Shown here piece after piece: positions 25,417 to 56,954 of a stretch of DNA of 64,000 bases; the stretch's first letter is position 1, and every line of letters starts with the position of its first letter. Origin of the DNA: Candidatus Bathyarchaeia archaeon (GTDB lineage: Bacteria; Patescibacteriota; Microgenomatia; PFEM01; JAFGMK01). The notes beneath the pieces were generated by a model. The model was not told where the DNA came from and made no database searches. It saw only the letters and a list, made by a program, of their open reading frames with translations. The position numbers were made by a program, and so were the translations under genes. The DNA lies in contig DATKWK010000017.1 in the NCBI GenBank assembly GCA_035529595.1, forward strand, positions 250,961-314,960, written 5' to 3'.

Positions 25417-25422
25417 AAACCG

Positions 25423-28012: not shown

Positions 28013-28026
28013 TAATTTAGAATAGA

Positions 28027-28827: not shown

Positions 28828-28851
28828 TTTACTGTTTGGGCGCTTTTTTAA

Positions 28852-40675: not shown

Positions 40676-41683
40676 ATGGTTAGAAAAGTCGAAGTATCCC
40701 ACCGGACGATTGTTTTTACGGTTCTTTTTCTGGTTTTCCTCTGGCTGCTTTATCAAATTAAGGACATTATTTTTAATCTCTTTATTGCTTTTGTGATGAT
40801 GGCGGCTCTCAATTCCTCAGTAGAAAAAATGGAAAAGATTAAAATCCCCAGGCCGATTGCCATTATCATGATTTATTTGGTTTTTTTCGGTTTTATCAGC
40901 GTGGTGATAGCTGGAGTTATTCCCCCCTTGGTTGATCAAACTTCAACTCTGATTAATAAAATCCCAAACTACGTCAAGGAAATTAACCTTCCTTGGCTTA
41001 ATAAGGAGGCAATTTTGTCCCAGTTTTCGTCCCTGGCATCAATTCCTGAAAACTTGGTTAAATTAACGGTTAATGTGTTCAGGAATATTCTGGCAATTTT
41101 CGTACTGGCGGTTATTAATTTCTACTTATTGATGGAAAGAAAAAACCTGGGAAAATATTTAACCGTTTTATTCGGAGGTGATGGCCATGACAGAGCAGCC
41201 AAATTTATCGAAAGATTGGAGGGGCGTTTGGGAAGCTGGGTTAGAGCTGAGCTTCTTTTGATGACAATTATTGGGGTTATGTCTTATATCGGTTTGAGAA
41301 TTTTAGGTATTGATTTTGCTCTGCCATTGGCGGTTTTTGCTGGTTTTTTGGAAGTTGTGCCCAATATCGGGCCGACTATTTCAGCGATTCCGGCGGTGAT
41401 TTCCGGTTTGACTATATCTCCTCTATACGGTTTAGCGGTATTGGCTCTTTATTTCTTAATTCAACAGGTTGAAAACAGTATAATTGTCCCTAAGGTGATG
41501 GAAAAAGGACTTGGTCTTAATCCCTTAGTGGTTATTGTCTGCTTGGCAGTTGGTTTAAGGCTTGGGGGTATTATCGGTATGATATTGGCGATTCCCGTCT
41601 TTCTAGTGATCCAAGAAATTTCTTCAGAAATTGTTATTCTGGATCGTTTTTCCAAAAACTCAAAAAGCCCGGGAAGCTTGTAA
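40676..41683 (+). CDS. AI-2E family transporter (UPF0118/PF01594)
   Basis: 8 TM helices and the family-typical loop IERLEGRLGSWVRAELLLMTIIGVMSYIGL. Confidence 0.82.
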   Translation: MVRKVEVSHRTIVFTVLFLVFLWLLYQIKDIIFNLFIAFVMMAALNSSVEKMEKIKIPRPIAIIMIYLVFFGFISVVIAGVIPPLVDQTSTLINKIPNYVKEINLPWLNKEAILSQFSSLASIPENLVKLTVNVFRNILAIFVLAVINFYLLMERKNLGKYLTVLFGGDGHDRAAKFIERLEGRLGSWVRAELLLMTIIGVMSYIGLRILGIDFALPLAVFAGFLEVVPNIGPTISAIPAVISGLTISPLYGLAVLALYFLIQQVENSIIVPKVMEKGLGLNPLVVIVCLAVGLRLGGIIGMILAIPVFLVIQEISSEIVILDRFSKNSKSPGSL

Positions 41684-41995
41684 GCCAGATTCTGTTCTCC
41701 GGCTAAAAGTCGGAGTGCAGCTATCTATCTTGTGCCCTCTATCCTTGAAGCGTAGCCGAAACTTCGGCTTCGGGGAAGCATCCTGGTAACGCTTCGGTCG
41801 GAGGTTGCAGCGGGGAGGGTTGCCTCTTTTCACTCTCTATTCCGACAGTTACGTCGGACTGAGTCGTCGTCTCTGTGGTCCTATCTGTCTTCCGACTTTG
41901 CAGTCGGAGCCTCCGAATTTACTCGGAGCACCCTGCTTCCTGCTGTCTGGACTTTCCTGGCCGAAATTTCGGCCTCGCTGCCGGCTTCCCGGACC
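41667..41995 (-). ncRNA. rnpB: RNase P RNA (bacterial type; compact)
   Basis: The minus strand reads ...CCGGGAAGC(P1)...CCAGGAAAGUCCAGACAGCAGGAAGCAGGGUGCUCC...ACAGAAUCUGGCUUA...GCUUCCCGG(P1'). The universally conserved P4 is present, with the bulged U and compensatory changes (AAGUCCAGA / UCUGGCUU). The RNA has many UUCG/GAAA-capped helices. The 3' P1 strand overlaps the last ~17 nt of the AI-2E gene. The end coordinates are approximate (about 10 nt either way). Confidence 0.78.
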
Positions 41996-42052: not shown

Positions 42053-42271
42053 TTAACTTTTGCTTTTTTCTTTTAGATCCCAGTTTTCGCGAAGATTTTG
42101 AATCCTTTTTACTAACTCATCGCAGTACTTAAGTCCTTCTTCAAGATAGTACTTCGTTTTTTTGTCTACCGGTTGGGTCTTTTCCATCAGAAGGTAGAAG
42201 AAAATATTGCGAACCGATGAAACCGGGCCCAATAGATTGTGAAATAAAACAGAGACCTTATCCTTTTCCAT
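42053..42271 (-). CDS. free-standing HisKA/DHp (histidine-kinase phosphoacceptor) domain mini-protein, about 72 aa
   Basis: KVSVLFHNLLGPVSSVRNIFFYLLMEK...LEEGLKYCDELVKRIQNLRE aligns residue-for-residue with the DHp of both neighbouring kinases (FVSIASHELRTPMTAVNNYIWMTL / FVSVASHELRAPMTTIKGYISMIL), including the phospho-His. No ATPase domain is present. Start chosen at MEKDK (42271). Confidence 0.5.
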   Translation of the reverse strand: MEKDKVSVLFHNLLGPVSSVRNIFFYLLMEKTQPVDKKTKYYLEEGLKYCDELVKRIQNLRENWDLKEKSKS

Positions 42272-42344
42272 AACTAGTATTCTACTATAATGTTGCCAAC
42301 TTTGCATTGATTATAGCGCTAAATCATGTTATCCTTATTCTATA

Positions 42345-42719
42345 ATGGAAAAGATACTGTTGGTTGAAGATGATAAGCATACGCGCGATCTTTATAGGTT
42401 ATTCCTTAAAGAAGCCGGCTATCAGGTTGAGATAGCTGAAGATGGTAAAACCGGTTTGTCGAAGGCAATCCAGGGAGGATATGACTTGATTCTTCTTGAT
42501 ATTATCTTACCGGAGATAGACGGCTTGAAATTCCTGGAGGAATTCAAAAAAGTTTCCCCTCGGCCAAAAAGTAAAGTGGTGATGTTGACGGTTTTAGATC
42601 AGGACGACTATCTTAAAAAGGCGATCGATCTGGGTGCGGCCGGCTATTTAGTTAAAAGTATCCTTAGTCCGGATGAAGTTTTGGCGATGGTGAAGGGCTT
42701 TTTAAAAGATAAACCATAG
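42345..42719 (+). CDS. single-domain response regulator (receiver only, CheY-like)
   Basis: LLVEDD...D(55) in LILLDIILPEIDG...K. No output domain. Confidence 0.85.
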   Translation: MEKILLVEDDKHTRDLYRLFLKEAGYQVEIAEDGKTGLSKAIQGGYDLILLDIILPEIDGLKFLEEFKKVSPRPKSKVVMLTVLDQDDYLKKAIDLGAAGYLVKSILSPDEVLAMVKGFLKDKP

Positions 42720-42722
42720 GTA

Positions 42723-43091
42723 TTACTTCAGATAGGCTTTTATCTTTTCCACCAGTTTATCCGGTGTCAGCGAACTCTTAATCAGGTACTCGTCAACTTC
42801 AATCCGGCCTTTCTTTTTCATGATTGCTTCACCGCTTAAATTAGTCAGCAGGAAAATCGTTTTGCTTTGTTTTAGTTTGCCCTCTTTTTGCAGTTTTTGG
42901 AGAATATCGATACCGTCAAGCTTGGGCAACATGATATCTAAAAGAACTAGATCATAGCTTTTTTTCTTCATTTCTTCATAGCCTTTTTGACCGTCACTGG
43001 CGCAGGTTATCTGATAACCCTCATCTTTTAAGACTTCCTCGTAGATATCTCTGATGAATTGATCGTCTTCAACGATTAAGATTTTTTTCAA
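42723..43091 (-). CDS. single-domain response regulator (receiver only)
   Basis: ILIVEDD, LVLLDIMLPKLDG and a conserved T/K. Its ATG overlaps the stop of the upstream kinase (ATGA). Confidence 0.85.
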   Translation of the reverse strand: MKKILIVEDDQFIRDIYEEVLKDEGYQITCASDGQKGYEEMKKKSYDLVLLDIMLPKLDGIDILQKLQKEGKLKQSKTIFLLTNLSGEAIMKKKGRIEVDEYLIKSSLTPDKLVEKIKAYLK

Positions 43092-45859
43092 GGTTTCACC
43101 TCCTCGGTAACTTTTAGGTTAAAATAAAAAGTTGAGCCCTTTTCCGGTTTTGATTCTGCTCCGATTTTCCCGTGGTGGAGATCGATAATTTGCTTGCAGA
43201 TATAAAGCCCCAGGCCGGTACCGCCGGTTTCGGCCACCGTGGCAAAGGATTTTTCCAAACGGCCAAATTTTTTAAATAGCTTTGGAATATCGCTTTTGGC
43301 AATTCCGCGGCCGGTATCGCTAATTTGGGTAGAGATCAGTTTCCCTTTCCGTTTAAAAGAAATTTTGATCGTACCGTTGATATCGGTGAATTTAATCGCA
43401 TTGCCGATCAAGTTAAGTAGTACCTCTCTGATTCTGTCCTGGTCAAGTGATACCAGGGGTAATTCCTTTTTGGGAGTTTCAAGAAAAGTTTTGATTTTCT
43501 TCTCTTTGGCTTTTGGTTGCAGCTCTTCAAAAACATTTTTTGCCAAAGCAACAATATTTCCCGGTGTCGGGTTGACTTCCAATTTGCCACCCTCAATTCG
43601 GGAGACGGTTAGCATATCTTCAACCAGGCTGATCAGTCTTTTTGTCGATAGGGCCGCTCTTTCCAGATAGAACTGCTGTTTTTGGGAAATTTTTCCGCCT
43701 TTGCCGTGCAAAGTCATCCAAATATAGTTATTAACGGCGGTCATCGGTGTTCGCAGCTCATGGCTGGCAATAGAAACAAACTCGTCTTTCATCCGGTCCA
43801 GCTCCCGGAGTTTTAAGTTAATTTTTCTTAATTTTCCGATGCTTTTTTCTAATCTATCGTAAAGAAGGGTGTTATCAAGGGCAATACCGGTTTGATCGAT
43901 AACACTTTGCATTAAATCTCTTTCCCGGGAAGAAATTTCTCTCTCGGCTTTTTTCCAGGCAAAAACCAAGACGCCCAGCACCTTTGTTTTACTGATGATC
44001 GGGTAAGCCCAATAAGTTTGGGTTTTAATTTTCATCTGCCATTTTTTTAATTTTACCGGTGATAAGGAAGGAGGGAAAACATCAACTAGATTTTCGGCAT
44101 AGATCTCCCGTTTAGTATTGATTGTTTTGGTTACCGATCCGTTTTCAATATCCAGCGGAAAGTAGATATCTTCGATAGCGATTTTTCTTGAAGCCAAAAG
44201 CCTGGCTAGTTGGGACTGGCTGGTAATGGCCTTAAAATAAAGTCGGTTATGGTTTTCATCAATCAGGCCGATTAAGCCAAATTGGCATCTCAGCTCTAAA
44301 GATAAGGCGTCAACGATTTTTTGACACAAGCTATTGATATCCAAGGTTTCCATTATGATAAGATCAAGGCGCCGTAAAGCTGCTAGAAAGCGATTTTGAT
44401 CCGTCAGTTCATGGGTGGCTTTCCTGATTTCCTCTTTCAGTTTTGCATTGAAGGTTTGGATTTCTGAAAACAGTCTGGCATTTTCGACGGCAAAAGAGGT
44501 TTGCGGAGTAAAGTTTTCCAGTACCCGGAGCTCGTTTAGGGTAAAAGCATCTAGTGACGGTTTTTCGCCAATAAATAAAAAGCCGTTTAAGGTTTCCTTG
44601 GTTCTAATAGGTAGGATGGTGGCTATTTCTTTAAACTTCATCTGGTTGACAATTTCTTGAGTCAGATGATCGTTCATTTGGGTAGCCTTTTTTGACAGCT
44701 CTTCTTGGATGAATGGAGACTGGTTACTTTCGGTAAATTTGATTAGGCTGTTGATATTATCCCAGTTAACTTTTTTGTCTCCGGAGCTGATAAAGCGGTA
44801 ATCTTTTCCTTCATCGATTTGAGAATCCATTAAAAGAAAGCCGGCAAACTTAATATTGAGCTCTTCTTTTAGAGTTTTTGAGACGTGGGTTAGCATTTCT
44901 TCAAAACCGATAGTTGAGGAAAGAATATCAGTGAGTTTTTCCAAAAGAATTTTAGGCTCATAACCGCTTCTGAAAAGATATCTACGGGTGAAGTTGCCTG
45001 ATTTTTCAGCTAAGTATTCAAAAGAAAAAACAATAAAGATCATTGCGCCAATAATTGGGAAAATAACTTCGCGAGGAACGCTTCTTTCAAAGACTAAGCC
45101 GTAGAAATAAGTCGCGGTACCTGAAATCAGAGAAAGAACAATCGCAATAATCGTTTTAACAATCAAGTTTTTTACCAGCAGCCTTAAGTCCAGCAAACGA
45201 TATCTGATGATGGCATAGCTGGTTGAGGTGATAAAAGGAACAATAAAAAGCGAGGACGCCCAAAAATACTTTGAGCTGCCTGCATAAAGAGGAACAATTA
45301 TATCCACGATTATCGTTCCGACAGCCAAAATAAAAACTCCCACAAAAATATACTTTAACTGAAGCCGGACAATTCCTTTGTAGGTGGCGTATTTCCTGAT
45401 GAAATTTCTAAAGATCAGTCCGCCAAAAAGAAGGTTGAATAAACCCCAGTATTTGTAAGCCGGCCCTAAAATAGTTTCAAAACCCCAGTCAGTTTCGACT
45501 ACCCCTTTGACCCATTTATTAGTAAACCAAAGTAAATATAGAAAGACGGCCGCAGTCGACCAATAAACTACCTGCCAGCGATTGGCTGCTTCGGTTCTCT
45601 CTTCCGGAAAAACAAAAGAAAAGTAAAGCGATGAGGCAATCAGGAAAAAAACCAGCGAAAAAACGACTTTGATCCAAGTTAAGCCGGAAAAAAGAATCGG
45701 TTGCGTATAGAAAAAAAGGCTTAGGGACCAGGTTGCCCCCGCCAAACAGAAAGCCGCCAAAGAGATATTGACCGGGCTTTTTCTACCTTTATGAAGAACA
45801 CTAGTGCCAAGGAGAGAGGTAAATATTGAAGTCAGAACACTAAGAAATCTTAAGTCCAT
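43088..45859 (-). CDS. sensor histidine kinase: N-terminal ~7-TM domain, two GAF-like domains, HisKA, HATPase_c
   Basis: 923 aa. H-box SHELRTPM, N-box NLIGNAIKFT, G1 DTGRGI, G2 GGTGLGL. Confidence 0.9.
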   Translation of the reverse strand: MDLRFLSVLTSIFTSLLGTSVLHKGRKSPVNISLAAFCLAGATWSLSLFFYTQPILFSGLTWIKVVFSLVFFLIASSLYFSFVFPEERTEAANRWQVVYWSTAAVFLYLLWFTNKWVKGVVETDWGFETILGPAYKYWGLFNLLFGGLIFRNFIRKYATYKGIVRLQLKYIFVGVFILAVGTIIVDIIVPLYAGSSKYFWASSLFIVPFITSTSYAIIRYRLLDLRLLVKNLIVKTIIAIVLSLISGTATYFYGLVFERSVPREVIFPIIGAMIFIVFSFEYLAEKSGNFTRRYLFRSGYEPKILLEKLTDILSSTIGFEEMLTHVSKTLKEELNIKFAGFLLMDSQIDEGKDYRFISSGDKKVNWDNINSLIKFTESNQSPFIQEELSKKATQMNDHLTQEIVNQMKFKEIATILPIRTKETLNGFLFIGEKPSLDAFTLNELRVLENFTPQTSFAVENARLFSEIQTFNAKLKEEIRKATHELTDQNRFLAALRRLDLIIMETLDINSLCQKIVDALSLELRCQFGLIGLIDENHNRLYFKAITSQSQLARLLASRKIAIEDIYFPLDIENGSVTKTINTKREIYAENLVDVFPPSLSPVKLKKWQMKIKTQTYWAYPIISKTKVLGVLVFAWKKAEREISSRERDLMQSVIDQTGIALDNTLLYDRLEKSIGKLRKINLKLRELDRMKDEFVSIASHELRTPMTAVNNYIWMTLHGKGGKISQKQQFYLERAALSTKRLISLVEDMLTVSRIEGGKLEVNPTPGNIVALAKNVFEELQPKAKEKKIKTFLETPKKELPLVSLDQDRIREVLLNLIGNAIKFTDINGTIKISFKRKGKLISTQISDTGRGIAKSDIPKLFKKFGRLEKSFATVAETGGTGLGLYICKQIIDLHHGKIGAESKPEKGSTFYFNLKVTEEVKP

Positions 45860-45899
45860 TACCTTGATTATAAGTTAAGACGGGGAAGAAAAACAATTG

Positions 45900-46757
45900 T
45901 CAGGCTTTTACTGCCCGGAGAGCATGGCCGGCAGGACCCTCAGGATCTTCAGGCCAGAAAGTGTTTTCTACTTGGGTAACTCTCAATCCGTTTCTCGAAA
46001 TAAGATTTGTCATTTCTTCAAGTGTCGGTCGGGTAGCCCCGACCAGGCCAGAGGTAATTTGTCGTTCCATAGCATCAGTATGGGTTCTGGAAAAAAGCGC
46101 TCCTGCAGTTGCCCGCCAACTATGTCTTATTTCGTCTCGGATATGGCGCTTGACTCTTGCTTGATTCCATCTTTTATTTCGGAAACCAATGACTGCCTGG
46201 CCATTTGGAGTAAGATGCTTGGCGATTTGGGTCATTACTTGCTCTCTTTGGTCAGGTGTCAGCCAGCAAATTACCAGGTGGGAAAAGATGGCATCAAATT
46301 GGCCTTCTACGCCTTGCTCTTGCCATGGTTTGGCAATATCCACTTGCCGCAGGTCGATTTTTTGTACAGGATTTGCTCGCCCTAGTTCTTTAGCAAGACT
46401 TTGGGCGTCTGCAAGCATTGTTTCGGAAAGATCAAGTCCCAAAAGGTAATCTGCTTGGGTGGCCGCCAAAATAGGTGGAAAGGCAGTTCCCTTACCGCAG
46501 CCAAGATCTAGGACACTGCCTCTGGGTATAGAAGGTAGAAGTTCGAGGGTTGTTTCAAGACTTTCTCGGTAAACATGAAGCCGCGTAAATGCTGCATAAG
46601 CTGAATCTGCCTGAGTAATCGCTGACATTTGTTCATATACCCAAGCTTGAACCCGGTTTCCAGCACCCTTAGCCCACTCTGGCCAATCTGCTCCATATCT
46701 TTCCCACCAACCTGGATCGATTTTTGGTCCTGTAGCTGCTTGTGCTTCGACAGTCAT
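45900..46757 (-). CDS. class I SAM-dependent methyltransferase with atypical (GC-rich) composition
   Basis: VLDLGCGKGTAF motif I, LDLSETML and FDAIFSHLVICWL. Codons are visibly GC-richer than the flanking genes (GCC/GGC/CTG-rich). Long shadow ORFs on the opposite strand agree with that. Confidence 0.75.
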   Translation of the reverse strand: MTVEAQAATGPKIDPGWWERYGADWPEWAKGAGNRVQAWVYEQMSAITQADSAYAAFTRLHVYRESLETTLELLPSIPRGSVLDLGCGKGTAFPPILAATQADYLLGLDLSETMLADAQSLAKELGRANPVQKIDLRQVDIAKPWQEQGVEGQFDAIFSHLVICWLTPDQREQVMTQIAKHLTPNGQAVIGFRNKRWNQARVKRHIRDEIRHSWRATAGALFSRTHTDAMERQITSGLVGATRPTLEEMTNLISRNGLRVTQVENTFWPEDPEGPAGHALRAVKA

Positions 46758-46857
46758 TTTTTCCCTTTAGATAGGTAAAAATTGATTGATCGTATTTTAA
46801 CATATAAGTCAAGAAAATTAAACCTATAGTCGAAATTAACAGTAAGGTATGCAGTCG

Positions 46858-46922
46858 TATTGATACCTTGTGACCCCAATAATCTAATACACGCCGGGGT
46901 GTAACTCTATTGACACCTTGGG
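46858..46922 (+). promoter_or_regulatory. 15-nt direct repeat pair (TATTGATACCTTGTG ... TATTGACACCTTGGG, 50-nt spacing) upstream of the kinase gene at 46981
   Basis: DR1 at 46858-46872 and DR2 at 46908-46922. Between them lies GTGACCCC...GGGGTGTAAC, a partial inverted repeat. Confidence 0.3.
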
Positions 46923-46980
46923 AATTCAGGTTTTCCAGTTTATTGCATCCTCAAGCTGATAATGATATTCTGTATTTAAG

Positions 46981-48360
46981 ATGGAACAGGAGAGAGAAAA
47001 GCAAACAAGAAAGATCCAATCCGGTTTCGAAGGCGCCCGGTCTTTTCTTGCCTCCGGCGCCCGGATTTGGAACCAATTTATGATGTTCATTGTCGTGGTT
47101 GGTGCTCTGCCGATAATTTTTCCTCAATGGGTGAACATCGGTAACAAAATCATTGTTTTAGCCATCGTCGCTTCATTGTTCGCTACCAGTCTGTTTAGTG
47201 AAATTATTCGCCGTTATTTAGAAAAGAGGAAAAAAAATACCGCCTCGGTAGTCAACTTTCAGCTTCTTTCACGAGCGATTCTTCTTACACTATTTCTCCA
47301 TCTTTTTGGCCGTATTAACGGCCCATTTTTTGTTCTTTATCTTCTGGTTGTCATGGAATCTTTCTTAAGCGCTAACCGTTTTCTTTCCAATCTGATTGTC
47401 AGTTTTATGGTTTTTGCTACCTCGTTTGAGTTTTTACTTCTGCTTTGGGTAAGGGAAGCGGTATTTGATTATGATTCGGCGATTGCTTTTTTGATCAGGA
47501 TAATTTCCATCATTTTTATGCATGCTTATGGCGGCGTTCTCGCAGAAAAGATAGCTTCCGAACAAGAAGCGGAAAATAATACCCGGGAGGTAGTTAAAGA
47601 AACTGAGAAATTGTCCCAGCAAATTAAGAAGACTAATTATAAATTAAAAGAACTGTCAGCTTTGAAAGATGAATTTGTTTCCGTTGCTTCCCATGAATTG
47701 CGGGCGCCGATGACGACAATCAAAGGCTATATTTCTATGATTCTTGAAGGTGATGCCGGTAAAATCCCGCCGAAAGTCAAGGAGTTCTTGAGAGATGCCT
47801 ATGAAAGCAACGACAGGATGATTCGGTTAGTTAATAATATGCTTAATGTTTCCCGGATTGAATCGGGTCGGCTGATTATTAGCCTCCAGGATATCCAGAT
47901 CGAACAGGCGATCGATGAGGTGGTTAGGAATTTTCAATTGGAAGCCGACCAGCATGGCTTGGAATTAAAGTATTTCCGATCCAAGAAAAAACTGCCTAAA
48001 GTTCGGGTTGATCCGGACCGGATTAGGGAGGTTATCTCCAATATTGTCGGCAATGCGGTTAATTTTACTCCTCATGGCCACATTTATGTTAAGAGTTACC
48101 GGGATGATGATTTGGTGACGGTTTCGATTGAAGACACCGGTGTTGGTCTGGCAATTGCCGATCAGGAACAGCTTTTTAAGAAGTTTTCTCAGATTGGAGT
48201 TGGGGCACCCTTGAAAAAGGGTTCCGGCCTAGGGCTTTATATCTGTAAAATGTTGATTAACGAGTTCGGTGGTGATATTTGGTTAAATTCGAGAGTCGGT
48301 AAAGGCACAACTTTTTATTTCAGCCTGCCGGTAATCGAAAACCATAAAGAAAAGGGCTAA
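46981..48360 (+). CDS. membrane sensor histidine kinase (5-6 TM + HisKA + HATPase_c)
   Basis: H-box SHELRAPM, N-box NIVGNAVNFT, G-boxes DTGVGL and GSGLGLYICK. Confidence 0.9.
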   Translation: MEQEREKQTRKIQSGFEGARSFLASGARIWNQFMMFIVVVGALPIIFPQWVNIGNKIIVLAIVASLFATSLFSEIIRRYLEKRKKNTASVVNFQLLSRAILLTLFLHLFGRINGPFFVLYLLVVMESFLSANRFLSNLIVSFMVFATSFEFLLLLWVREAVFDYDSAIAFLIRIISIIFMHAYGGVLAEKIASEQEAENNTREVVKETEKLSQQIKKTNYKLKELSALKDEFVSVASHELRAPMTTIKGYISMILEGDAGKIPPKVKEFLRDAYESNDRMIRLVNNMLNVSRIESGRLIISLQDIQIEQAIDEVVRNFQLEADQHGLELKYFRSKKKLPKVRVDPDRIREVISNIVGNAVNFTPHGHIYVKSYRDDDLVTVSIEDTGVGLAIADQEQLFKKFSQIGVGAPLKKGSGLGLYICKMLINEFGGDIWLNSRVGKGTTFYFSLPVIENHKEKG

Positions 48361-48391
48361 TAAAAATCTATAATCATGAAAGGATAACCGG

Positions 48392-48793
48392 ATGGATAAT
48401 AACGGTAGCCAAGTAAACCAAACCACGGCCTCAAGGACGATTTTAATGGTTGAAGACGATCTGCCGATGGTAAAGATGTATTCAACCAAACTTAAGATCG
48501 AGGGTTTTGAAGTTATTGTCGCTCATGATGGCGAGGAAGGGTTAAAGAAACTAAGAGAACAATCAGTAAACCTGGTTTTACTTGATTTAATGATTCCTAA
48601 ATTGGGAGGAATGGAAGTTCTCGAGAAAATGAGACAGGAAGAAAAGACAAAAAAAATGCCGGTGGTTATTCTGTCTAATTTATCGCAAGAGGAAGACATT
48701 CAGAGAGCGAGTGAACTTGGCGTAAAAAATTTCTTGATCAAATCGAACTATACCCCAAGCCAGGTTGTCAAAGTTGTTAAGAGTTATTTCTAA
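48392..48793 (+). CDS. single-domain response regulator (receiver only)
   Basis: ILMVEDD, LVLLDLMIPKLGG and SNLSQEED...K. Confidence 0.85.
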   Translation: MDNNGSQVNQTTASRTILMVEDDLPMVKMYSTKLKIEGFEVIVAHDGEEGLKKLREQSVNLVLLDLMIPKLGGMEVLEKMRQEEKTKKMPVVILSNLSQEEDIQRASELGVKNFLIKSNYTPSQVVKVVKSYF

Positions 48794-48796: not shown

Positions 48797-50479
48797 GTGA
48801 AAATACTGCCCGAAAAACTGAAGGAAATTCTCCTCAAGGACGGCTATGTCAATCAGGAGGATTTTAATAATGCGGTTCAAATTTCCCAAGATCTGGATAA
48901 ACCTCTTGAGGATGTGTTAATCTTCCGTGGCTTAATTAATGAAGAATCTTTAGGCCAACTTATTGCCGAACATTACCAAGTCCCCTTTGTCTCTTTAAGG
49001 CATAAACTTATTCCTCTGGAAGTCTTGCAGCTCATACCTGAAAATTTGGCCCGATCCTACCGGATCTTACCTTTTGAAAAAACCGGCGAGGAAGTTTGTT
49101 TGGCGATGGAGGATCCGGAAGACTTTGAAGCAGTAGAGTTTGCGAAAAGGCAAATCGGATTGAGGATAAAACCCTTCTTTGCCACCTCTGAGGCTCTGGT
49201 TAAGGGGCTTTCTCAGTACAAAAAAAATATCAGGAAAGACTTCGAAAAGATCATCAGCGAAAACTTGAGAAAAACAAAAACCGTCAGGGGTAAGGATTTA
49301 GCCAAAGCCGCCGTTGATATCCCGGTTGTCAAGATTCTGGATACGATTTTGGAATACGCCATTGCCGAAAGGGCTTCCGATATTCATATTGAACTTTTGG
49401 AAAATGAGTTAATGGTTCGTTACCGGATCGATGGCCTGCTTCACGACATAATTTCTTTACCGCAAGAAATTCACGCGGCAATCGTCGCCCGGATTAAAGT
49501 TATGACGCGTCTAAAGATTGATGAACATCGGATACCACAAGACGGCCGCTTTAAATTTCAAATTGATGAGGACTATATTTCTCTTCGGGTTTCAATCATT
49601 CCCGCTTTTTATGGGGAAAACATCGTGATGCGGTTGTTGTTTGAATCAGCCCGGCCTTTAAGTCTGGAGGAATTAGGTCTAGCCGGAAAAAATTTTGAAA
49701 CCCTCCAAAGAAACATTAAAAAACCTCATGGCATGCTTTTGGTTACCGGACCAACGGGTTGCGGAAAGACGACTACCCTTTATAGTATCTTGAACATTGT
49801 CAATACAGCCGAGACTAAAATTTGCACAATTGAGGATCCGATTGAATATGGTATGGAAAGAGTAACTCAGATCCAGGTTAACCCGACCGCCGGTTTGACC
49901 TTTGCCACCGGTCTTCGGGCGTTAGTCAGGCATGATCCTGATGTAATCATGGTCGGAGAAATTAGAGATAAAGAAACCGTGGAAATGGCAATTCATTCGG
50001 CGCTGACCGGCCATCTGGTTCTTTCGACATTACACACTAACGATGCACCGGGGGCGATCCCGCGCTTATTGGATATGGGAGCCGAAGATTTCTTGGTTGC
50101 CTCGACCGTCAATATTGTGATTGCCCAGCGACTTGTTCGCCGGATTTGTACTGCCTGCATTCAGAGGTTCAAGCCCGAGGTAAAGGCAATGGAACTAATC
50201 GAGAAACGCTTTGGGGTAAAAATCAAGAGTTGCGATTTTTACCGGGGGAAAGGCTGTGCAGAATGTAATGGAAAAGGCTATCGGGGCAGGGTGGGAATTT
50301 TTGAGATTTTAGAAGTGACCGATGAGATTAGAGAATTAATTCTGAAAAAAGTTTCGGTAGGAGCCATCAGAAAAGCAGCCATTAAAACGAGCATGATAAC
50401 GATGTTGCTTGACGGCTTGGATAAAATCGCCGCCGGAATTACGACAGTTGAAGAAGTTTTAAGAGTTGTTCAGGAATAA
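48797..50479 (+). CDS. pilB: type IV pilus assembly ATPase PilB (GspE family)
   Basis: N-terminal GSPII_E_N-like domain, Walker A GPTGCGKTTT, Asp/His boxes, and a tetracysteine (CTAC...CAEC) zinc motif. Confidence 0.9.
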   Translation: MKILPEKLKEILLKDGYVNQEDFNNAVQISQDLDKPLEDVLIFRGLINEESLGQLIAEHYQVPFVSLRHKLIPLEVLQLIPENLARSYRILPFEKTGEEVCLAMEDPEDFEAVEFAKRQIGLRIKPFFATSEALVKGLSQYKKNIRKDFEKIISENLRKTKTVRGKDLAKAAVDIPVVKILDTILEYAIAERASDIHIELLENELMVRYRIDGLLHDIISLPQEIHAAIVARIKVMTRLKIDEHRIPQDGRFKFQIDEDYISLRVSIIPAFYGENIVMRLLFESARPLSLEELGLAGKNFETLQRNIKKPHGMLLVTGPTGCGKTTTLYSILNIVNTAETKICTIEDPIEYGMERVTQIQVNPTAGLTFATGLRALVRHDPDVIMVGEIRDKETVEMAIHSALTGHLVLSTLHTNDAPGAIPRLLDMGAEDFLVASTVNIVIAQRLVRRICTACIQRFKPEVKAMELIEKRFGVKIKSCDFYRGKGCAECNGKGYRGRVGIFEILEVTDEIRELILKKVSVGAIRKAAIKTSMITMLLDGLDKIAAGITTVEEVLRVVQE

Positions 50480-50529: not shown

Positions 50530-51765
50530 ATGCCTGTTTTTAAATATAAAGCCGAAACTAAAAAGCATGAGATTAAAGAAGGGGTTTTAGTGGCGGCTTC
50601 GAAAAAAGATGCCGGCGAACAACTTAAAGACCAGCAACTTTCCCCCTTGTTTGTCCAGGAAACGACTACTGGGGGCAAAAAGCAATCCGGGGTTTTATTT
50701 GCCCGGGGAGTGAGTTTAGTTGATAAGGCCAATCTCTGTCGCTACCTTTCGACGATGATTAACTCGGGATTGGCTTTAACCGAGGCGGTGGAGGTATTGG
50801 CTGAGGAGTCAGACCACCCTAAAATGCAGCAGGTTTTAGATGATGTACGCGTTAGTCTTCAGGCTGGCCAGCCTCTTTCGGCTGCTTTTACTCAGCACCC
50901 GGACGTTTTCGACGACGTTTTCCTGACACTCGTCAAAGCCGGAGAAGAAAGCGGTACCCTAGGAAAGTCGTTTGACTATCTTGGCAAACAGCTTTATGCG
51001 GATTACGAATTGACACAAAAAGTAAAAAGTACCTTGGCTTATCCGATTGTGATTGTTTTAACGACTTCAGCTTTAGGAGTGGCGATGTTAGTCTTTGTCG
51101 TCCCTAAAATTGCTCCTATTCTGCTGAACCTCAACCGCGAATTTCCGCTGCCGGTTTATACTCTGTTTATCCTGCGCTTCGGTTTGCTGCTTTCAAAGAA
51201 CATCCCCTTTTTTTTAGCAGGAATAATCTTTTTAGGATTTTGTCTTTTTTTGATTTTTCGTAAACCTGCCGGCAGAAAAGTTCTTGGTAATTTTATTTCC
51301 CGAATCCCTTTTTTCGGGCAGCTTTTAATTAAGCTTGTTCTTGGCAGGTTTAACCGGACTTTAGCGACTCTTCTCAAAAGCGGTGTTCCGATTACTAATT
51401 CGCTTCGGGTATCCGCCGCTACTTTAAATTTGCCCCAATTTAAAAATATGGGCAGTTATTTTGTTGAGGAAGTAGAAAAAGGGGTTGCCCTGTCTGAGAT
51501 CTTAAAAAAAACTAAACTTTTTCCTTCGATTATGATTCGGATGGTTTCCACCGGCGAGAAAACCGGCTCTATAGATAAACTGCTGATTGATTTAGCCCAA
51601 TTTTACGAGGAGGAAGTCAGTAATGCCCTGAAAACCCTCACTAGCGTTATTGAACCGATTATGATGTTGTTTATCGGTATTGGGGTAGGAGTTATCGTAA
51701 TTTCGGTGATTGCTCCTATATATTCATTTGTAGGCAGTCTCTCTAAAAGCCTCACGACCCATTAG
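50530..51765 (+). CDS. pilC: type IV pilus inner-membrane platform protein PilC (GspF family, two T2SS-F domains)
   Basis: 411 aa with a duplicated GspF domain and 3 TM helices. Confidence 0.9.
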   Translation: MPVFKYKAETKKHEIKEGVLVAASKKDAGEQLKDQQLSPLFVQETTTGGKKQSGVLFARGVSLVDKANLCRYLSTMINSGLALTEAVEVLAEESDHPKMQQVLDDVRVSLQAGQPLSAAFTQHPDVFDDVFLTLVKAGEESGTLGKSFDYLGKQLYADYELTQKVKSTLAYPIVIVLTTSALGVAMLVFVVPKIAPILLNLNREFPLPVYTLFILRFGLLLSKNIPFFLAGIIFLGFCLFLIFRKPAGRKVLGNFISRIPFFGQLLIKLVLGRFNRTLATLLKSGVPITNSLRVSAATLNLPQFKNMGSYFVEEVEKGVALSEILKKTKLFPSIMIRMVSTGEKTGSIDKLLIDLAQFYEEEVSNALKTLTSVIEPIMMLFIGIGVGVIVISVIAPIYSFVGSLSKSLTTH

Positions 51766-51774
51766 GTCAAAACG

Positions 51775-52266
51775 ATGATGCAAGTAAAAAAAGAAGCGAC
51801 CGGTTTTACTCTAATTGAAATATTGTTAACTGTTGGCCTGTTAGCAATTCTCTTAGGACTGGGGACAATCGTTTTTGGAAATTTTTCCCGTCAAGACCAA
51901 CTAAATTCGACTGCCGAAAAAATCGTTTCCTGTCTAAGCGAGGCTCAAACCCGGACGGTTGCCGGATATTCCCTGGGACAGGCAGCCGCTTTCAATTTTG
52001 GAGTCCACTTTAACGATAGCAGTTACACTATTTTTCCCGGTACGGCTTTTGATCCCAATGATGTACGCAATCAACGCTTTGAATTACCGGCCACCCTGGA
52101 AATAAAACCGATATTTCTGCCTTTAAGTAATATTGTTTTTGAAAAAATTACCGGTGAAGTCCGTGATTATAATCCCAGCCAAAATTATCTTATTTTGACC
52201 GGTAAACAATCCGGTAAAGAAAAAAATATCATTATTAATAAGTTGGGAGTAGCGAAAATAGAATAA
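51775..52266 (+). CDS. prepilin-type N-terminal cleavage/methylation domain protein (minor pilin/pseudopilin)
   Basis: Class III signal KEATG|FTLIEILLTVGLLAILL with Glu at position +5. Confidence 0.75.
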   Translation: MMQVKKEATGFTLIEILLTVGLLAILLGLGTIVFGNFSRQDQLNSTAEKIVSCLSEAQTRTVAGYSLGQAAAFNFGVHFNDSSYTIFPGTAFDPNDVRNQRFELPATLEIKPIFLPLSNIVFEKITGEVRDYNPSQNYLILTGKQSGKEKNIIINKLGVAKIE

Positions 52267-53642
52267 TGTCAATAGTTAAAAACCGGAAATTTATGGAAAA
52301 AGGCCTGGTTCTTGTCGAAGTGTTAATTGCCAGCGGAATTTTGGCTCTATTACTGGTTCCAATCCTGAGTTTCTTTGTCACCAGTCTTGAATCAAACTGG
52401 TTTGCCTCAAAAGAAATTAAGGCCCAAAGCTTGCTTTTGGAGCAACTGGAGGCAGTTAGATCAATCCGGGAAAGAAATTGGCCGGAATTAAAAGACGGCA
52501 CTTATTATTTGCAGTTGGAAGAGGGTAGCTGGAAATTGGTTGAAAACCAAAATGGAGAAACCGTTGGCTCTTTTACCCGTAAAATCGAAATCTTGCCCGT
52601 ATATCGGAGTATAAACGATCTGATTGTCGAGGCGGCTGAGCCGGGTTCCCGCCTTGATCCGTCAACCAAAAAAATTACGGCAACCGTTTCCTGGCATGTC
52701 TTGCGTGACCGAAGTATTAGTGTCAGCACTTATTTAACCCGCCATCTTGATAATTTGATTTGGAAGCAGACCACCCAGGCGGAATTCGACCTCGGGGAAA
52801 AGCAGTATGTTGAGACGACTCAGGTTGTTGACGGTGAAGTTCAGCTTGAAGGCGGCTGCGGCGAGAATCCGGCCGGTGCCTGGATTTATAATGAATCTTT
52901 TCAGAATACCTGGCAAATTCATCCCTCGGCCCAAAATAATATTCGTGAAATAACTCAACCACCCGGTTATGTTTATGAAGGAACTAAGGCTTTGGAACTG
53001 TCTTCCTTTTCCGGGGCCGACACGAAACTTAGGAATGTTGGTAGTGTCTGTACGCTTGGTTTCACCCGGTTTGATTTTTATGCCTATAATTCGGCCAGTA
53101 TCGAACAATCTTTCCAGATTGGCGGTGATTGGCAAGGAGGTTTTGTTGAGGTCGTCCTGCCATCTAATTCCTGGCAGTTTTTTTCTATTGCTTACAATAA
53201 GATCAGCGGTGATAATGAGAATAACTTAAGTTTTCTCTTTTTTAAACCGGGGAATGCCTTACCGGAGACCAAATTTTATCTGGATAATATGACTTTAAGC
53301 GGTGGGGTCGGCGGATATTATAGTGAGGGAACGTTAATCTCCTTGATCTTAGATGGTAATCGCGAAACAGTTTTTAATCAGATTTCTTATACTGCTAACT
53401 TGCCGGCTCAAACCGAAATCGGCTTTCAGATTGCGACTTCAAACAGCAGTGAGGGCCCCTGGTTTTTCTACGGGCCAGGCGGCGCCACCGAAACGAACGA
53501 TCTATATACTCAGGCGGAAGGTGAAGGGATCTGGTTGGGGAATAATTTCGGCAGATTCTTGCGTTATAAAGCCTACTTGCGTTCACTTGATGGCACCGGC
53601 ACACCGGTTTTATCCGACGTCACTATCAATTACTCGCCATGA
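52266..53642 (+). CDS. large pilin-like protein (prepilin N-terminus + ~400-aa beta-rich extracellular domain)
   Basis: EKG|LVLVEVLIASGILALLL prepilin-like N-terminus with Glu +5. 458 aa. Possibly a tip or minor pilin. Confidence 0.55.
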   Translation: MSIVKNRKFMEKGLVLVEVLIASGILALLLVPILSFFVTSLESNWFASKEIKAQSLLLEQLEAVRSIRERNWPELKDGTYYLQLEEGSWKLVENQNGETVGSFTRKIEILPVYRSINDLIVEAAEPGSRLDPSTKKITATVSWHVLRDRSISVSTYLTRHLDNLIWKQTTQAEFDLGEKQYVETTQVVDGEVQLEGGCGENPAGAWIYNESFQNTWQIHPSAQNNIREITQPPGYVYEGTKALELSSFSGADTKLRNVGSVCTLGFTRFDFYAYNSASIEQSFQIGGDWQGGFVEVVLPSNSWQFFSIAYNKISGDNENNLSFLFFKPGNALPETKFYLDNMTLSGGVGGYYSEGTLISLILDGNRETVFNQISYTANLPAQTEIGFQIATSNSSEGPWFFYGPGGATETNDLYTQAEGEGIWLGNNFGRFLRYKAYLRSLDGTGTPVLSDVTINYSP

Positions 53643-54151
53643 AATTGTCAAAAATTAATCCAAGTCACCCCTGGAGTGAAATATCAGGTTATACTTTAAT
53701 TGAAGTATTGCTTTACTCCCTGATTTTATCGCTTTTTCTCTTACTTACCACTCAGGTGTTTATTACCGTTAAGCTCTCCAGTACCCAATCAAATATTTTC
53801 GTTTATCTGTCCCGGAATTTTCGCCGGGCAAGTAGTGATTTTACCCAAACTATAAGGGGTGCGGCAAATGTGAGTTCTCCCTTGCCGGGTAGCTTGTCTG
53901 CCAGTCTTGTTTTGAATAATGGCGCGATTACTTACCAGCTTGACCAGGGGATTCTGAAAAAAACTCAATCCGGTCAGACTTGGGATTTGACTACTGATGA
54001 GGTAACCGTTTCTGATCTTTCCTTCGAAAACGCGGCTGAATCAACGCAAACAGCTCTCTTAAGAATCAGTATGAAAATTGAATCAAATTATCTTTTAGAA
54101 GGAGGCAGGAAAATATCAGAAGATTTTGAAACAACGATCGGATTAAGATAG
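53639..54151 (+). CDS. prepilin-type pseudopilin
   Basis: SG|YTLIEVLLYSLILSLFLL class III signal. Confidence 0.7.
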   Translation: MKLSKINPSHPWSEISGYTLIEVLLYSLILSLFLLLTTQVFITVKLSSTQSNIFVYLSRNFRRASSDFTQTIRGAANVSSPLPGSLSASLVLNNGAITYQLDQGILKKTQSGQTWDLTTDEVTVSDLSFENAAESTQTALLRISMKIESNYLLEGGRKISEDFETTIGLR

Positions 54152-54152
54152 G

Positions 54153-54545
54153 GTGAATTTTAAAATGACAATTAAAACCACTAAGGGTCAAGCTTTATTA
54201 CCGCTTCTGATTGTTATTGTGATAGTTTTGACTATTGGCACAGCCTCTATCGAACTGGCTATAAGTAACGTAGTTATTAACCGCTATTTTCAGGAAGGGT
54301 TAACCGGTTATTTTACTGTTGAGGCCGCTTTAGAAAATGCTTTCTTAAGAATTCTGCGCAATCCCGGATATACCGGCGAGAATTTGCAGATCAATCAGGC
54401 GTCTTGTACAATAGAAGTAAGCGGCATGTCGCCTAAAATAGTTTCTGCCCGTTGTGATACCGGCCGGCAAATTAGAAAAATGCAGGCTGAGATAACTTAC
54501 AATCAGGGGATAATGACGGTCGGAAATATCAAGGAAGTTGAATAA
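54153..54545 (+). CDS. pilin-like hypothetical protein (hydrophobic N-terminus lacking the conserved Glu +5)
   Basis: TKG|QALLPLLIVIVIVL. 130 aa. Lies inside the pilus locus. Confidence 0.4.
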   Translation: MNFKMTIKTTKGQALLPLLIVIVIVLTIGTASIELAISNVVINRYFQEGLTGYFTVEAALENAFLRILRNPGYTGENLQINQASCTIEVSGMSPKIVSARCDTGRQIRKMQAEITYNQGIMTVGNIKEVE

Positions 54546-55953
54546 TATGCTTTTTGCAAAACGAAGGAAGAACTATTTCGCTCTCAGCTTCTCTGATCAG
54601 GAGATCCGGTTAGCCCAGGTTGACCAAAAAGGCAATTTAGTCTTGAATTCAAAATTAGAGCTCAAATCCGGCATTATTGAGAGGGGTTGGATAAGAAAGG
54701 CCCAAGAGCTGGTAACCCTCTTGGGAAATTTCCTTAAGCCGTTAAAGTTAAAAAAGAGATTTGTGGCCGTTGGTTTACCGGAAATCGTCTCCTTTAGCCG
54801 CGTTTTAACCCTGCCTGCCCTTCCCAGTGAAGAACTTGATGATGCGGTCAGGTGGCAAATAGAGTCTTTGCTTCCCCTGCCTCTGAATGAGACCTATTTG
54901 GACTGGATGCTTCTGGATAAAGATGAAACTTCCGTTCGGGTTTTAGTAATGGCCTTGCCGGCCCAATTAATTGAGGATTTTGCCAAAGTGCTTGAGAATT
55001 TAAATCTGGTGCCGGTTGCCTTTGAACCTACTTCGTTGAGCCTATCCCGCTTAGCGGAAAAAGGAGACAAAAACTGCCTGATAGTCGAGATTAACGAAAA
55101 AGAAGCGGTGCTAGTGTTAGTCGGACCCCATGGCGAGATTGAACTGACTTCCACAACTGCTTTTAAGGATCAGGGTATAAAAGAGAACCTGCCTGTCACG
55201 ATAGAGGAACTTTTGGGTTTCTATAAAAAGAAGTTTAGTGAAAAGGCAAAGATTGTAAAGGTCCTTTTATGCGGTGGCGGAGTTAGTGATGAATTGACAG
55301 CTGAAATCAAAAAGAAAACGTCTTTAGAAACGGCACCAATTCCCATTAAGCCACTCGGGTTCGCCAGTACTATTTCTCTGGCTAAAAAAGATGTCGCCGC
55401 GCCGATCGATGAAAAAACTGTTAATCTGATTCCACCCCGAATCCAGGGGGTTTTCGACTTAGCAGAAAAAAGCCGGGTCCTGAGTAATTGGGTCAAATTC
55501 TGGTTATTTAGTCTCTTTTTAATCTTGTTTGCTTTTGGGGTTACGGCGGCTCGGGTTTATTTTGATCTCAAACAGATTGAGGGTGAGATTATTGAGCGTC
55601 AGGTAAAAATCACGCCCGAGATGAAAAAGGTTGAAGGGGAAGCCAAAAGAATAACCAAAAAAGCCAGCCAAATTCTGACTCTGGTTGATGCCTCGCGGGA
55701 GACGATTTCCTTATTGGGGTTGATTCAGGCTGCGGTACCGGAAGGAATAAGTCTTAATCATTATTCAATCGACTTTGGGAAACAGCAGATTATTATTAAT
55801 GGGGTAGCCGATCATCGTGATCAACTGATAAAGTTTAAGCAGGCTCTTGAAAACGAGGAAAAACTGTCTCAGGTTAGAATTCCCCTTTCCAGTCTAGAAA
55901 AGGAGGAAAATGTCGTCTTTACCGTTTCGCTTATCGCGAAAACCGGCTCATAA
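54538..55953 (+). CDS. PilM-like actin-fold protein fused to a PilN-like TM + periplasmic segment
   Basis: N-terminal PilM-like region (FALSFSDQEIRLAQVD...). A TM helix (WVKFWLFSLFLILFAFGV) at about residue 320, then a coiled-coil/periplasmic tail. Confidence 0.65.
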   Translation: MNNMLFAKRRKNYFALSFSDQEIRLAQVDQKGNLVLNSKLELKSGIIERGWIRKAQELVTLLGNFLKPLKLKKRFVAVGLPEIVSFSRVLTLPALPSEELDDAVRWQIESLLPLPLNETYLDWMLLDKDETSVRVLVMALPAQLIEDFAKVLENLNLVPVAFEPTSLSLSRLAEKGDKNCLIVEINEKEAVLVLVGPHGEIELTSTTAFKDQGIKENLPVTIEELLGFYKKKFSEKAKIVKVLLCGGGVSDELTAEIKKKTSLETAPIPIKPLGFASTISLAKKDVAAPIDEKTVNLIPPRIQGVFDLAEKSRVLSNWVKFWLFSLFLILFAFGVTAARVYFDLKQIEGEIIERQVKITPEMKKVEGEAKRITKKASQILTLVDASRETISLLGLIQAAVPEGISLNHYSIDFGKQQIIINGVADHRDQLIKFKQALENEEKLSQVRIPLSSLEKEENVVFTVSLIAKTGS

Positions 55954-55993
55954 AACAGCCTCTTCTCGACCAGAGAAGTCGGAAGCGTTATCT

Positions 55994-56575
55994 ATGAATA
56001 ACGGAGTAAAACTTAAGTCGCCGGCACCAAAAAAAATAGTGCCCTATCCCTATCTTCATTTATCGGTAGCGATTTTTTTTACCCTTTTATTTCTCGGTGG
56101 CATTTTTCTTTCGTCAGGGAAATTAATTTCTTTGAGCCAGAAAACAGCTGCCAGCCGCGGCCAATTGACAGCTTTAAGAGAAAATGTAGTTGCTCTTACT
56201 GCCCTGTCTCAGAATTTGGAATCGGTTAGAGGGGAAATCACTTTGCTTGATAAAGCATTGCCTAAAGAAGACGGCATTGTTGATTTTGTTAAAGCGATTA
56301 AGGGAATCAGCCGGGAGATTTCGCTTGAGACATTTGCCTTCGGTTCGGATCAGCCAAGTCTCAATGCCGCCGGTAATGCCTATATCGATTTTGGGATTGA
56401 GATGAAAGGTGCCTTTCCAGCCTTGCGAATTTTTTTGGACCGCTTCACTAACCTTCCTTATATAGTGAAGGTGCAAATGGTTAACTTGGCAAGTATTGAT
56501 CAGGAAGAAGCTCAACTGACAGTTCAAGCAAGAATTTATGTCAATGACTCATTTTTTTCCCAGGCGGACCAATGA
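55994..56575 (+). CDS. PilO-like bitopic protein
   Basis: Single TM helix (LHLSVAIFFTLLFLGGIFL), a coiled coil (LTALRENVVALTALSQNLESVRGEITLLDKAL), then a ferredoxin-like C-terminus. Start chosen at ATG 55994. Confidence 0.5.
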   Translation: MNNGVKLKSPAPKKIVPYPYLHLSVAIFFTLLFLGGIFLSSGKLISLSQKTAASRGQLTALRENVVALTALSQNLESVRGEITLLDKALPKEDGIVDFVKAIKGISREISLETFAFGSDQPSLNAAGNAYIDFGIEMKGAFPALRIFLDRFTNLPYIVKVQMVNLASIDQEEAQLTVQARIYVNDSFFSQADQ

Positions 56576-56847: not shown

Positions 56848-56954
56848 TACCTGCCAGGTTTTATAGTTATTGTGTTGACAAGAGCTTTCTTAGTTTGTTA
56901 AGCTGGACTTGTGATTAAAAACAAATAGAATGTTTTGGGAAAGGGGGTGAAAAA

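Follow-up and report, generated by a model that had tools for sequence, protein, structure and literature searches.

A natural DHp-only mini-protein beside receiver-only regulators and a type IV pilus operon in Patescibacteria: a candidate minimal histidine phosphotransfer protein

Two-component signalling usually takes a kinase and a regulator, and its longer relays run through HPt domains or through Spo0B and ChpT, which carry a vestigial ATPase domain. Would the DHp (dimerisation and histidine phosphotransfer) hairpin suffice on its own? EnvZ domain A, an engineered DHp of 67 residues, dimerises, is phosphorylated in trans, donates to OmpR and dephosphorylates OmpR~P in vitro, and a bare DHp can thus be functional. 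This article is concerned with a natural gene that looks much the same, found in a stretch of 64 kb of metagenomic DNA (contig DATKWK010000017.1 of assembly GCA_035529595.1), here called the window, whose positions give all coordinates below unless a relative's locus is named. The gene encodes a 72-residue “mini-protein” and lies in a cluster of two membrane histidine kinases (HK1 and HK2) and three receiver-only regulators (REC-A, REC-B and REC-C), just before a type IV pilus operon. On evidence that is computational throughout, it is a real, selected gene whose product is a homologue of kinase DHp domains with a predicted hairpin fold, and it is conserved beside receiver-only genes and the pilus operon. 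That the mini-protein dimerises, that its histidine is phosphorylated, which way phosphate flows and that the output is the pilus motor are our inferences. Our preferred but tentative reading, to which we give somewhat less than an even chance, is that a dimer of the DHp-only mini-protein serves in histidine phosphotransfer and supplies receiver-only regulators, which in turn act on the pilus motor.

The closest functional parallels are Spo0B and ChpT. Like the mini-proteins, these combine a helical hairpin and a phospho-accepting histidine (assigned in the mini-proteins by homology) with the lack of ATP-dependent autophosphorylation, and they are placed between receiver-only or receiver-bearing proteins. 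The H-boxes of ChpT (CHDFISP; 4FMT), Spo0B (RHDWMN; 1IXM) and the mini family (FHDLLGP) share an aspartate just after the histidine (H+1) and a hydrophobic residue where kinases have an arginine (H+3). By analogy the mini family would work most like Spo0B and ChpT, but it is not a member of their group, as both the C-terminal domain and a profile match are absent: none of its 18 members matches SPOB_a (PF14689) or HPTransfase (PF10090) in Pfam. As for EnvZ domain A, it has the same size and fold as the mini-protein, but it was cut in the laboratory from a full kinase and has a canonical HDLRTP box, whereas the mini-protein comes from a natural gene and has neither Arg(+3) nor Thr(+4). Regulation of two-component systems through a helical hairpin or a DHp-DHp contact is also known from RetS-GacS, Sda and Spo0E, with which the mini-protein may be compared. 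RetS, however, is a large hybrid kinase, unlike the mini-protein, and in Sda and Spo0E an H-box is absent, as is any sequence similarity to the mini family that could be detected (no Pfam matches).

In their census, Galperin et al. (2018) described “HisKA, no HATPase” proteins, mainly archaeal and experimentally unstudied, which are filed under “possible incomplete histidine kinase” by P2CS and have been proposed to be phosphoacceptor or phosphotransfer proteins or phosphatases (PMC5847659). These share with the mini-proteins a HisKA-like domain, a conserved histidine and the lack of an ATPase domain, but they carry N-terminal PAS/GAF or REC domains, whereas the mini-proteins are bare hairpins of 64–96 residues; and whereas that class is mainly archaeal, the mini-proteins are bacterial (Patescibacteria) and have a fixed context with receivers and a pilus operon. 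Judged by sequence, the mini family fits this loose class, but as a bare hairpin. At the output end, PilG/PilH, PixG/PixH and EmvR resemble REC-C in being regulators without DNA-binding output that are linked to PilB. Their phosphate comes from kinases of the CheA type or the ordinary kind, and a DHp-only partner is described for none of them. EmvR, a single-domain regulator, represses the PilB ATPase and binds PilB (PMC11973254), whereas for REC-C, binding to PilB is read here from gene order alone. Literature searches in several phrasings returned no description of a natural family of DHp-only small proteins, nor of one tied to type IV pili.

The genes concerned lie as follows.

42053–42271, minus strand: mini-gene, DHp-only mini-protein of 72 residues; GenBank HUW21401.1, annotated “hypothetical protein”.
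42345–42719, plus strand: REC-A, receiver-only regulator of 124 residues; Pfam Response_reg at 1.7e-25.
42723–43091, minus strand: REC-B, receiver-only regulator of 122 residues; Pfam Response_reg only.
43088–45859, minus strand: HK1, membrane histidine kinase of 923 residues; transmembrane region, two GAF domains, HisKA and HATPase_c (Pfam).
46981–48360, plus strand: HK2, membrane histidine kinase of 459 residues; Pfam HisKA at 1.3e-17 and HATPase_c at 3.2e-27.
48392–48793, plus strand: REC-C, receiver-only regulator of 133 residues; Pfam Response_reg only.
48797–50479, plus strand: PilB/GspE-type pilus assembly ATPase; Pfam T2SSE at 1.5e-131 and MshEN.
50530–57401, plus strand: remainder of the type IV pilus operon; PilC (T2SSF), pilin-like proteins (N_methyl), a PilM-PilN fusion (PilM_2 and PilN), PilO and a pilin.

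An earlier reading, made from the letters of the window alone (the sequence-only reading), had described two membrane kinases, three receiver-only regulators and a 72-residue open reading frame (ORF) at these places, with no effector domain in any regulator. ORF calling and Pfam recover all of them, and Pfam finds nothing but Response_reg in REC-A, REC-B and REC-C. Each kinase has five to six hydrophobic, transmembrane-like segments. The start codon of REC-B and the stop codon of HK1 overlap, whereas REC-A, which retains the DD, D, T and K residues, is divergent from the mini-gene and has no kinase gene of its own adjoining. HK2 is the opening gene of the pilus operon: 31 nucleotides (nt) separate it from REC-C and 3 nt separate REC-C from the start of pilB, after which come PilC, the pilins, PilM-PilN and PilO, so the cluster does lie directly upstream of the pilus genes, as had been claimed. 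A profile scan of all ORFs of the 64-kb window found no further receiver or kinase, and the window therefore holds no DNA-binding response regulator.

Is so small an ORF a gene at all? It is short, the window protein has no Pfam match and its annotation is hypothetical only, all of which would suit a decayed kinase fragment or a spurious ORF without function, as the sequence-only reading had allowed; a single-sequence word-indexed protein search moreover matched the mini-protein to itself only. An exhaustive HMMER search of 1.84 billion representatives, on the other hand, returned seven small homologues (64–81 residues, 45–59% identity, E down to 1e-18), with no kinase among its matches. A follow-up profile search widened the family to 18 clusters at 90% identity (seven at 50%), every member having 64–96 residues. 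With 18 clusters among 5.8 billion sequences, the family is rare, and going by the similarity of RNase J it does not extend beyond a Pacebacteria-like group of Patescibacteria. Scanning metagenome contigs with the family alignment added one short locus only (L050), and scanning genome contigs with REC-A gave distant receivers only (at most 46% identity), with a mini homologue in 0 of those 43 loci. The neighbouring RNase J gene was used as an independent route to relatives and led to a metagenome-assembled genome (MAG) of “Candidatus Pacebacteria” (GCA_016927565.1, JAFGMK010000006.1; locus L056), which holds an intact syntenic mini-ORF (5522–5800, plus strand, matching P0019) that its annotators had not called. 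At this locus the 3′ end of the mini-gene overlaps the convergent bacA gene, and REC-A is present as two tandem copies (125 and 124 residues).

Relatives' loci carry the labels L046 to L059, and the 13 distinct loci examined are all metagenomic, many of them on short contigs. In these 13 the mini-ORF is intact, with 64–96 residues and 39–63% identity. Five positions are invariant in the alignment of 18 members (His11, Arg21, Leu28, Leu53 and Leu60), and Phe10, Leu13, Ser18, Lys31, Thr39 and Leu43 are at least 90% conserved. The proportion of nonsynonymous differences is 0.26–0.40 in distant pairs, in which synonymous sites are saturated (proportion of differences 0.75–0.97), and the ratio of nonsynonymous to synonymous rates (dN/dS) is 0.04, 0.08 and 0.19 in the three close pairs. 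The check on conservation and dN/dS that the sequence-only reading had proposed thus yields an intact family at dN/dS 0.04–0.19 in close pairs, and the mini-ORF is a genuine gene under purifying selection. The idea of a decayed fragment falls with it: the family is conserved and syntenic in relatives, dN/dS is far below 1, a promoter-like element is conserved and in some relatives the gene is coupled to a receiver gene, so that we give this explanation next to no probability. Annotation easily misses such genes or leaves them without a name, as one relative's copy was uncalled and none scores above the Pfam threshold.

The promoter-like element is a TAnnAT hexamer, which precedes the mini start codon by 7–11 nt in 11 of the 11 loci compared and in the window lies as follows.

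42279–42284, minus strand: −10-like hexamer TAGAAT, 7 nt upstream of the start codon of the 72-residue form.

Its position supports that start, and suggests an mRNA that is leaderless or has a very short leader. An upstream ATG at 42307 would give a form of 84 residues; this was rejected because homologues start at the position of Met13 and the conserved hexamer lies between the two ATGs, the upstream one not being kept in homologues. A TTGGCA motif occurs 9–20 nt before the −10-like hexamer in four type-1 loci (an arrangement defined below: the window, L047, L055 and L056). As a −35 box for TAGAAT it was discarded, the spacing (9 nt) being too short. Across the −10 region of the window (42272–42300, minus strand) and of L055, TAGTAgaaTACTA makes up a 5-bp inverted repeat. 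The 73 nt that separate the mini-gene from REC-A form a divergent promoter region, in which the repeat may serve as an operator.

What does the gene encode? According to the sequence-only reading, the mini-protein matches the DHp domains of both local kinases position by position, including the phospho-histidine, and BLASTP bears this out, with ungapped alignments over 60 residues that place histidine on histidine (E 4e-6 for HK1 and 5e-5 for HK2). Identity to kinase DHp domains is 20–25%. The further call of a bare HisKA/DHp domain holds at the level of the family, where profile alignment, hidden Markov model (HMM) and AlphaFold2 agree. With hhalign, the 18-member family aligns to 20 kinase DHp segments from the fetched loci at a probability of 91.9% (E 7e-7) over 63 columns, again histidine on histidine. 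Run over all ORFs of all loci, the family HMM finds the mini-proteins and otherwise only kinase DHp regions, over the full length of the profile; it scores the HK1-type DHp domains of L048, L055 and L056 best (26–32 bits), followed by HK2 (21) and HK1 (19.5) of the window. HisKA is matched, if weakly, by 10 of the 18 members (best E 2.9e-5) and is the sole Pfam family matched by a majority. The mini family is thus best described, from these comparisons, as a diverged DHp beyond the current Pfam model.

AlphaFold2, given the alignment of 18 sequences, predicts a two-helix hairpin (residues 2–28 and 37–71, pLDDT 92.1, pTM 0.72). In Foldseek, the top PDB neighbours of this hairpin are the DHp domains of RetS, GacS, ERS1, YF1-type kinases and HK853, the best being the RetS/GacS DHp co-complex. 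Helix 1, read from the sequence, carries a wide hydrophobic stripe, and two hairpins are presumed to join in a four-helix bundle, like the DHp domains of kinases. Nothing else is attached: only 10 residues precede the histidine, the protein ends after the hairpin with no HATPase_c and no other domain, and tails beyond helix 2 are short and unconserved across the family. Among the 18 members there is no Pfam match to Hpt (PF01627), and two helices are predicted, not the four that an HPt has in one chain of about 120 residues; nor do they match Spo0E or CheZ, and their alignment contains no SQELD-like motif. A sequence profile search of the PDB with the family gave no kinase and no significant match, the best (E 0.64) being an out-of-register fragment of ArcB.

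The genomic surroundings are conserved, with a receiver-only gene immediately adjoining the mini-gene in 13 of 13 distinct loci. By sequence, the receivers form three orthologous groups: REC-A, by the mini-gene; REC-B, after HK1 (54–73% identity within the group); and REC-C, before pilB. REC-A orthologues of L047, L049, L055 and L056, each adjoining the mini-gene, are 52–78% identical, and REC-C is 69–70% identical to the receivers before pilB in L047, L056 and L057. Two arrangements are seen. In type 1 (the window, L047, L048/L049, L055 and L056, and in part L054), [HK1]-REC-B is followed by a convergent REC-A and a divergent mini-gene, with HK2-REC-C-pilB a few kb off; the order HK2-REC-C-PilB is kept in L047, L056 and L057. 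In type 2 (the six loci L046, L051, L052/L053, L058 and L059, with five mini clusters), the mini-gene is followed by a REC-C-like receiver and then by pilB, which is confirmed where the contig extends to it (L046, L052/L053 and L058). These type-2 receivers are closest to REC-C (42–47% identity), and in three of the loci there is an 8-nt overlap (ATGTCTAA) between the mini stop and the receiver start, the mini-gene being translationally coupled to the receiver in type 2. As it stands directly before the pilB-linked receiver, the type-2 mini-gene corresponds to the slot of HK2 in type 1; in L046 there is no kinase within 8 kb of it. The association with receiver-only regulators and a pilus operon, which the sequence-only reading had drawn from one locus, is accordingly kept in 13 loci and two gene arrangements. 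At L057 only HK2-REC-C-pilB is found, HK1, REC-A, REC-B and the mini-gene being jointly missing, a loss that is expected if these four form one input branch. Two irregularities belong to the assemblies (L048 3394–3469 and 4356–4732): HK1 looks divided by nature into a DHp gene and a CA (catalytic, ATP-binding) gene in L048/L049, which was rejected as evidence for a split kinase because it is a scaffold gap of Ns, and REC-A is frameshifted in L048 but intact in the near-identical L049, an assembly artefact.

These surroundings bear on a second possibility raised by the sequence-only reading, that of a heterodimerising anti-kinase. Such a hairpin would be a dominant-negative microprotein that pairs with the DHp of either kinase, HK1 or HK2, or sits on their CA domain, and so blocks autophosphorylation. 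The mini-protein is indeed homologous to the local kinase DHp domains and nearest to the HK1 type, its gene adjoins the HK1 module in type 1, and the RetS-GacS heterodimer, whose co-complex is its best structural neighbour, works in this way. But the mini-gene persists without HK1 (L047) and without an adjacent HK1 or HK2 (the six type-2 loci), its conserved neighbour is a receiver and not a kinase, and the identity to kinase DHp domains is low for a heterodimerising mimic. Nor would a decoy that merely dimerises need the invariant histidine and Arg(H+10) or the Ser/Thr at H+7. The anti-kinase alternative is weakened by all this, and we regard it as quite unlikely; the data fit receiver domains rather than kinases as partners of the mini-protein.

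How the histidine would be used can be approached through the residues that follow it, compared here between 18 mini-proteins and 20 kinases.

H+1: kinases E/D/Q; mini-proteins D in 15/18, N in 3/18.
H+3: kinases R/K in 20/20; mini-proteins L/I/F in 18/18.
H+4: kinases T in 18/20; mini-proteins G in 13, N in 3, S in 2, with Gly in the window protein.
H+5: kinases P in 20/20; mini-proteins D in 10, P in 7, Q in 1.
H+7: kinases mostly T/N/S; mini-proteins S/T in 18/18.
H+10: kinases variable; mini-proteins R in 18/18.

The histidine itself is invariant (18/18), and the Ser/Thr at H+7 and the Arg at H+10 lie on the same helix face. The canonical H-box H-[E/D]-x-[R/K]-[T/N]-P is not what the mini-proteins have: their F-H-D-L-L-G(-P) is without the kinase Arg(+3) and Thr/Asn(+4), both of which are missing from ChpT too and the first of which is missing from Spo0B, and an hhalign comparison with the ChpT DHp aligns the H-box only, in register (22 columns, E 2.5e-4, probability 43%). 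By its composition, the mini H-box is of the transferase type and not of the kinase type.

Could the mini dimer then be a phosphatase or a phosphate sink, which speeds dephosphorylation of the neighbouring phosphorylated receiver (REC-A, or in type 2 the receiver linked to pilB) or takes the phosphoryl group back onto its histidine? For such a role, comparison may be made with Spo0E, a small hairpin protein, and with the DHp domain of EnvZ in isolation. The pair of mini-protein and receiver is self-sufficient in the type-2 loci, with no kinase nearby, and both the DHp fold and the receiver-facing residues are conserved. The invariance of the histidine would be left unexplained, since the histidine is dispensable for phosphatase activity in several kinases, and Pfam gives no Spo0E or CheZ signal. 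Phosphatase activity is among the suggestions of Galperin et al. for “HisKA, no HATPase” proteins (PMC5847659), but in the four HisKA kinases tested by Willett and Kirby, kinase activity depended on an acidic H+1 and phosphatase activity on Thr/Asn at H+4 (PMC3510030), and this Thr/Asn is lost in 15 of the 18 mini-proteins, where H+4 is Gly or Ser. We consider this role unlikely.

The same table speaks to a split kinase substrate, that is, a free DHp dimer that receives phosphate in trans from the CA domain of HK1, HK2 or another kinase and is then an additional phosphodonor with a receiver specificity of its own, for REC-A. Three DHp-bearing proteins face three receivers, among which REC-A alone has no kinase gene of its own; the specificity positions of the window protein (H+7, +8, +11, +12 and +15) differ from those of both HK1 and HK2; the acidic H+1, needed for autophosphorylation chemistry, is retained in 15 of the 18; and EnvZ domains A and B act in trans in vitro. 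The kinase Arg/Lys at H+3 and Thr at H+4 are nevertheless lost, as is Pro at H+5 in 11 of the 18, the profile scan found no stand-alone CA gene in the 64-kb window and no kinase is visible in the type-2 loci, which makes this explanation very unlikely in our view.

We return to the phosphotransfer role, which the sequence-only reading had suggested in the form of a Spo0B-type step. It is favoured by the invariant histidine with Ser/Thr(+7) and Arg(+10) on one face, by the loss of kinase- and phosphatase-specific residues, by the resemblance of the H-box to those of ChpT and Spo0B, by the several receiver-only proteins around the mini-gene, and by the type-2 loci, where the mini-gene replaces the operon kinase directly before the pilB-linked receiver. 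In the proposed relay, HK1 would sense through its GAF domains and phosphorylate REC-B, and perhaps REC-A too, the alpha-1 helices of the two receivers being alike. His11 of the mini dimer would accept the phosphoryl group from a phosphorylated receiver-only protein, as Spo0B and ChpT do, and hand it on to a REC-C-type receiver; HK2 would phosphorylate REC-C directly. REC-C, with no output domain and co-transcribed with pilB, would act by contact with the pilus motor and not on DNA, a step for which EmvR is a precedent. The receiver-only regulators probably target PilB, and the pilus-linked circuit seems to do without DNA-binding regulators. A bolder form of this proposal, possible but rather doubtful in our eyes, makes the mini family the smallest natural histidine phosphotransferase, a bare DHp dimer, with neither a sensor nor a pseudo-CA domain, in a His-Asp-His-Asp relay built entirely of single-domain proteins whose end receiver gates PilB; in type-2 lineages the mini-protein would here have replaced the operon kinase as immediate phosphodonor.

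Several observations weigh against a phosphotransfer role. Spo0B (192 residues) and ChpT (about 225) have a C-terminal CA-like alpha/beta domain that the mini-protein does not, and a dimer of 72-residue chains would be an unprecedentedly small phosphotransferase. At L047, REC-B, REC-A and the mini-gene are kept without HK1. In the type-2 loci neither an upstream kinase nor a donor receiver is visible, so that a relay would require unseen partners elsewhere in the type-2 and L047 genomes. The window protein and two other members have Asn instead of Asp at H+1. Pfam HisKA (PF00512) gives no match to the window mini-protein alone at E≤1, an outcome that the sequence-only reading had named as refuting its domain call, and the HisKA gathering threshold (26.9 bits) is reached by no member as far as shown. 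The Foldseek E-values (>0.3) are not significant, as is expected of a 70-residue hairpin, to which any helical hairpin is similar. Finally, 13 metagenomic loci, many on short contigs, make a small sample.

If the proposal is true, a natural, selected DHp hairpin of 70 residues is a sufficient signalling module alone, and the mini family defines a minimal histidine phosphotransfer protein or a minimal receiver modulator. Patescibacteria live attached to hosts and depend on them, a way of life in which type IV pili are thought to have a central part, and on the bolder form of the proposal these ultra-small bacteria would control their host-attachment pili independently of transcription. The family is a testable handle on this control, as all components but the two kinases are small and soluble.

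Between the two kinases lies a gene that the sequence-only reading had not mentioned.

45900–46757, minus strand: SAM-dependent methyltransferase of 285 residues; Pfam Methyltransf_12/25/11, with a sub-threshold match to CheR.

With a GC content of about 48%, it differs from its surroundings (about 40%). Neither of the syntenic loci L047 and L056 has it, and in L056 a Y1 transposase occupies the spot. Probably the gene is an insertion rather than a conserved component of the signalling module, and the evidence points to a variable insertion site within the cluster. In the pilus operon, the PilM-PilN fusion (54538–55953, plus strand) is a single protein of 471 residues, with an equivalent fusion of 478 residues in L046.

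On the other side of the mini-gene, 60 nt downstream and on the same strand, lies an RNase P RNA gene of bacterial class A (41665–41992, minus strand; Rfam RF00010, 100.8 bits for a gathering score of 100), which has its own TTAGCA-18-TATAAT site (42031–42002, minus strand). An artefactual ORF downstream of the mini-gene in L048 yields the same peptide (MKRGNPP.CNLR), which suggests that the two genes are neighbours there too, whereas the gene after the mini-gene is bacA in L047, L054 and L056. At NCBI the source MAG bears the label “Candidatus Bathyarchaeia archaeon” (proteins HUW21398.1, HUW21401.1 and HUW21408.1). The contig, for its part, carries a bacterial RNase P RNA, MiaA, RNase J and a bacterial type IV pilus operon, and its RNase J is nearest to Pacebacteria/Patescibacteria sequences (62–68% identity), so the label looks wrong, through mis-binning or mislabelling. 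Further upstream (23810–29646, plus strand), six consecutive paralogous genes for ABC-2-type permeases (PF06182, 263–277 residues) and one for an ABC ATPase form an array that is unusually large for a small genome and coincides with a stretch of strongly negative AT skew.

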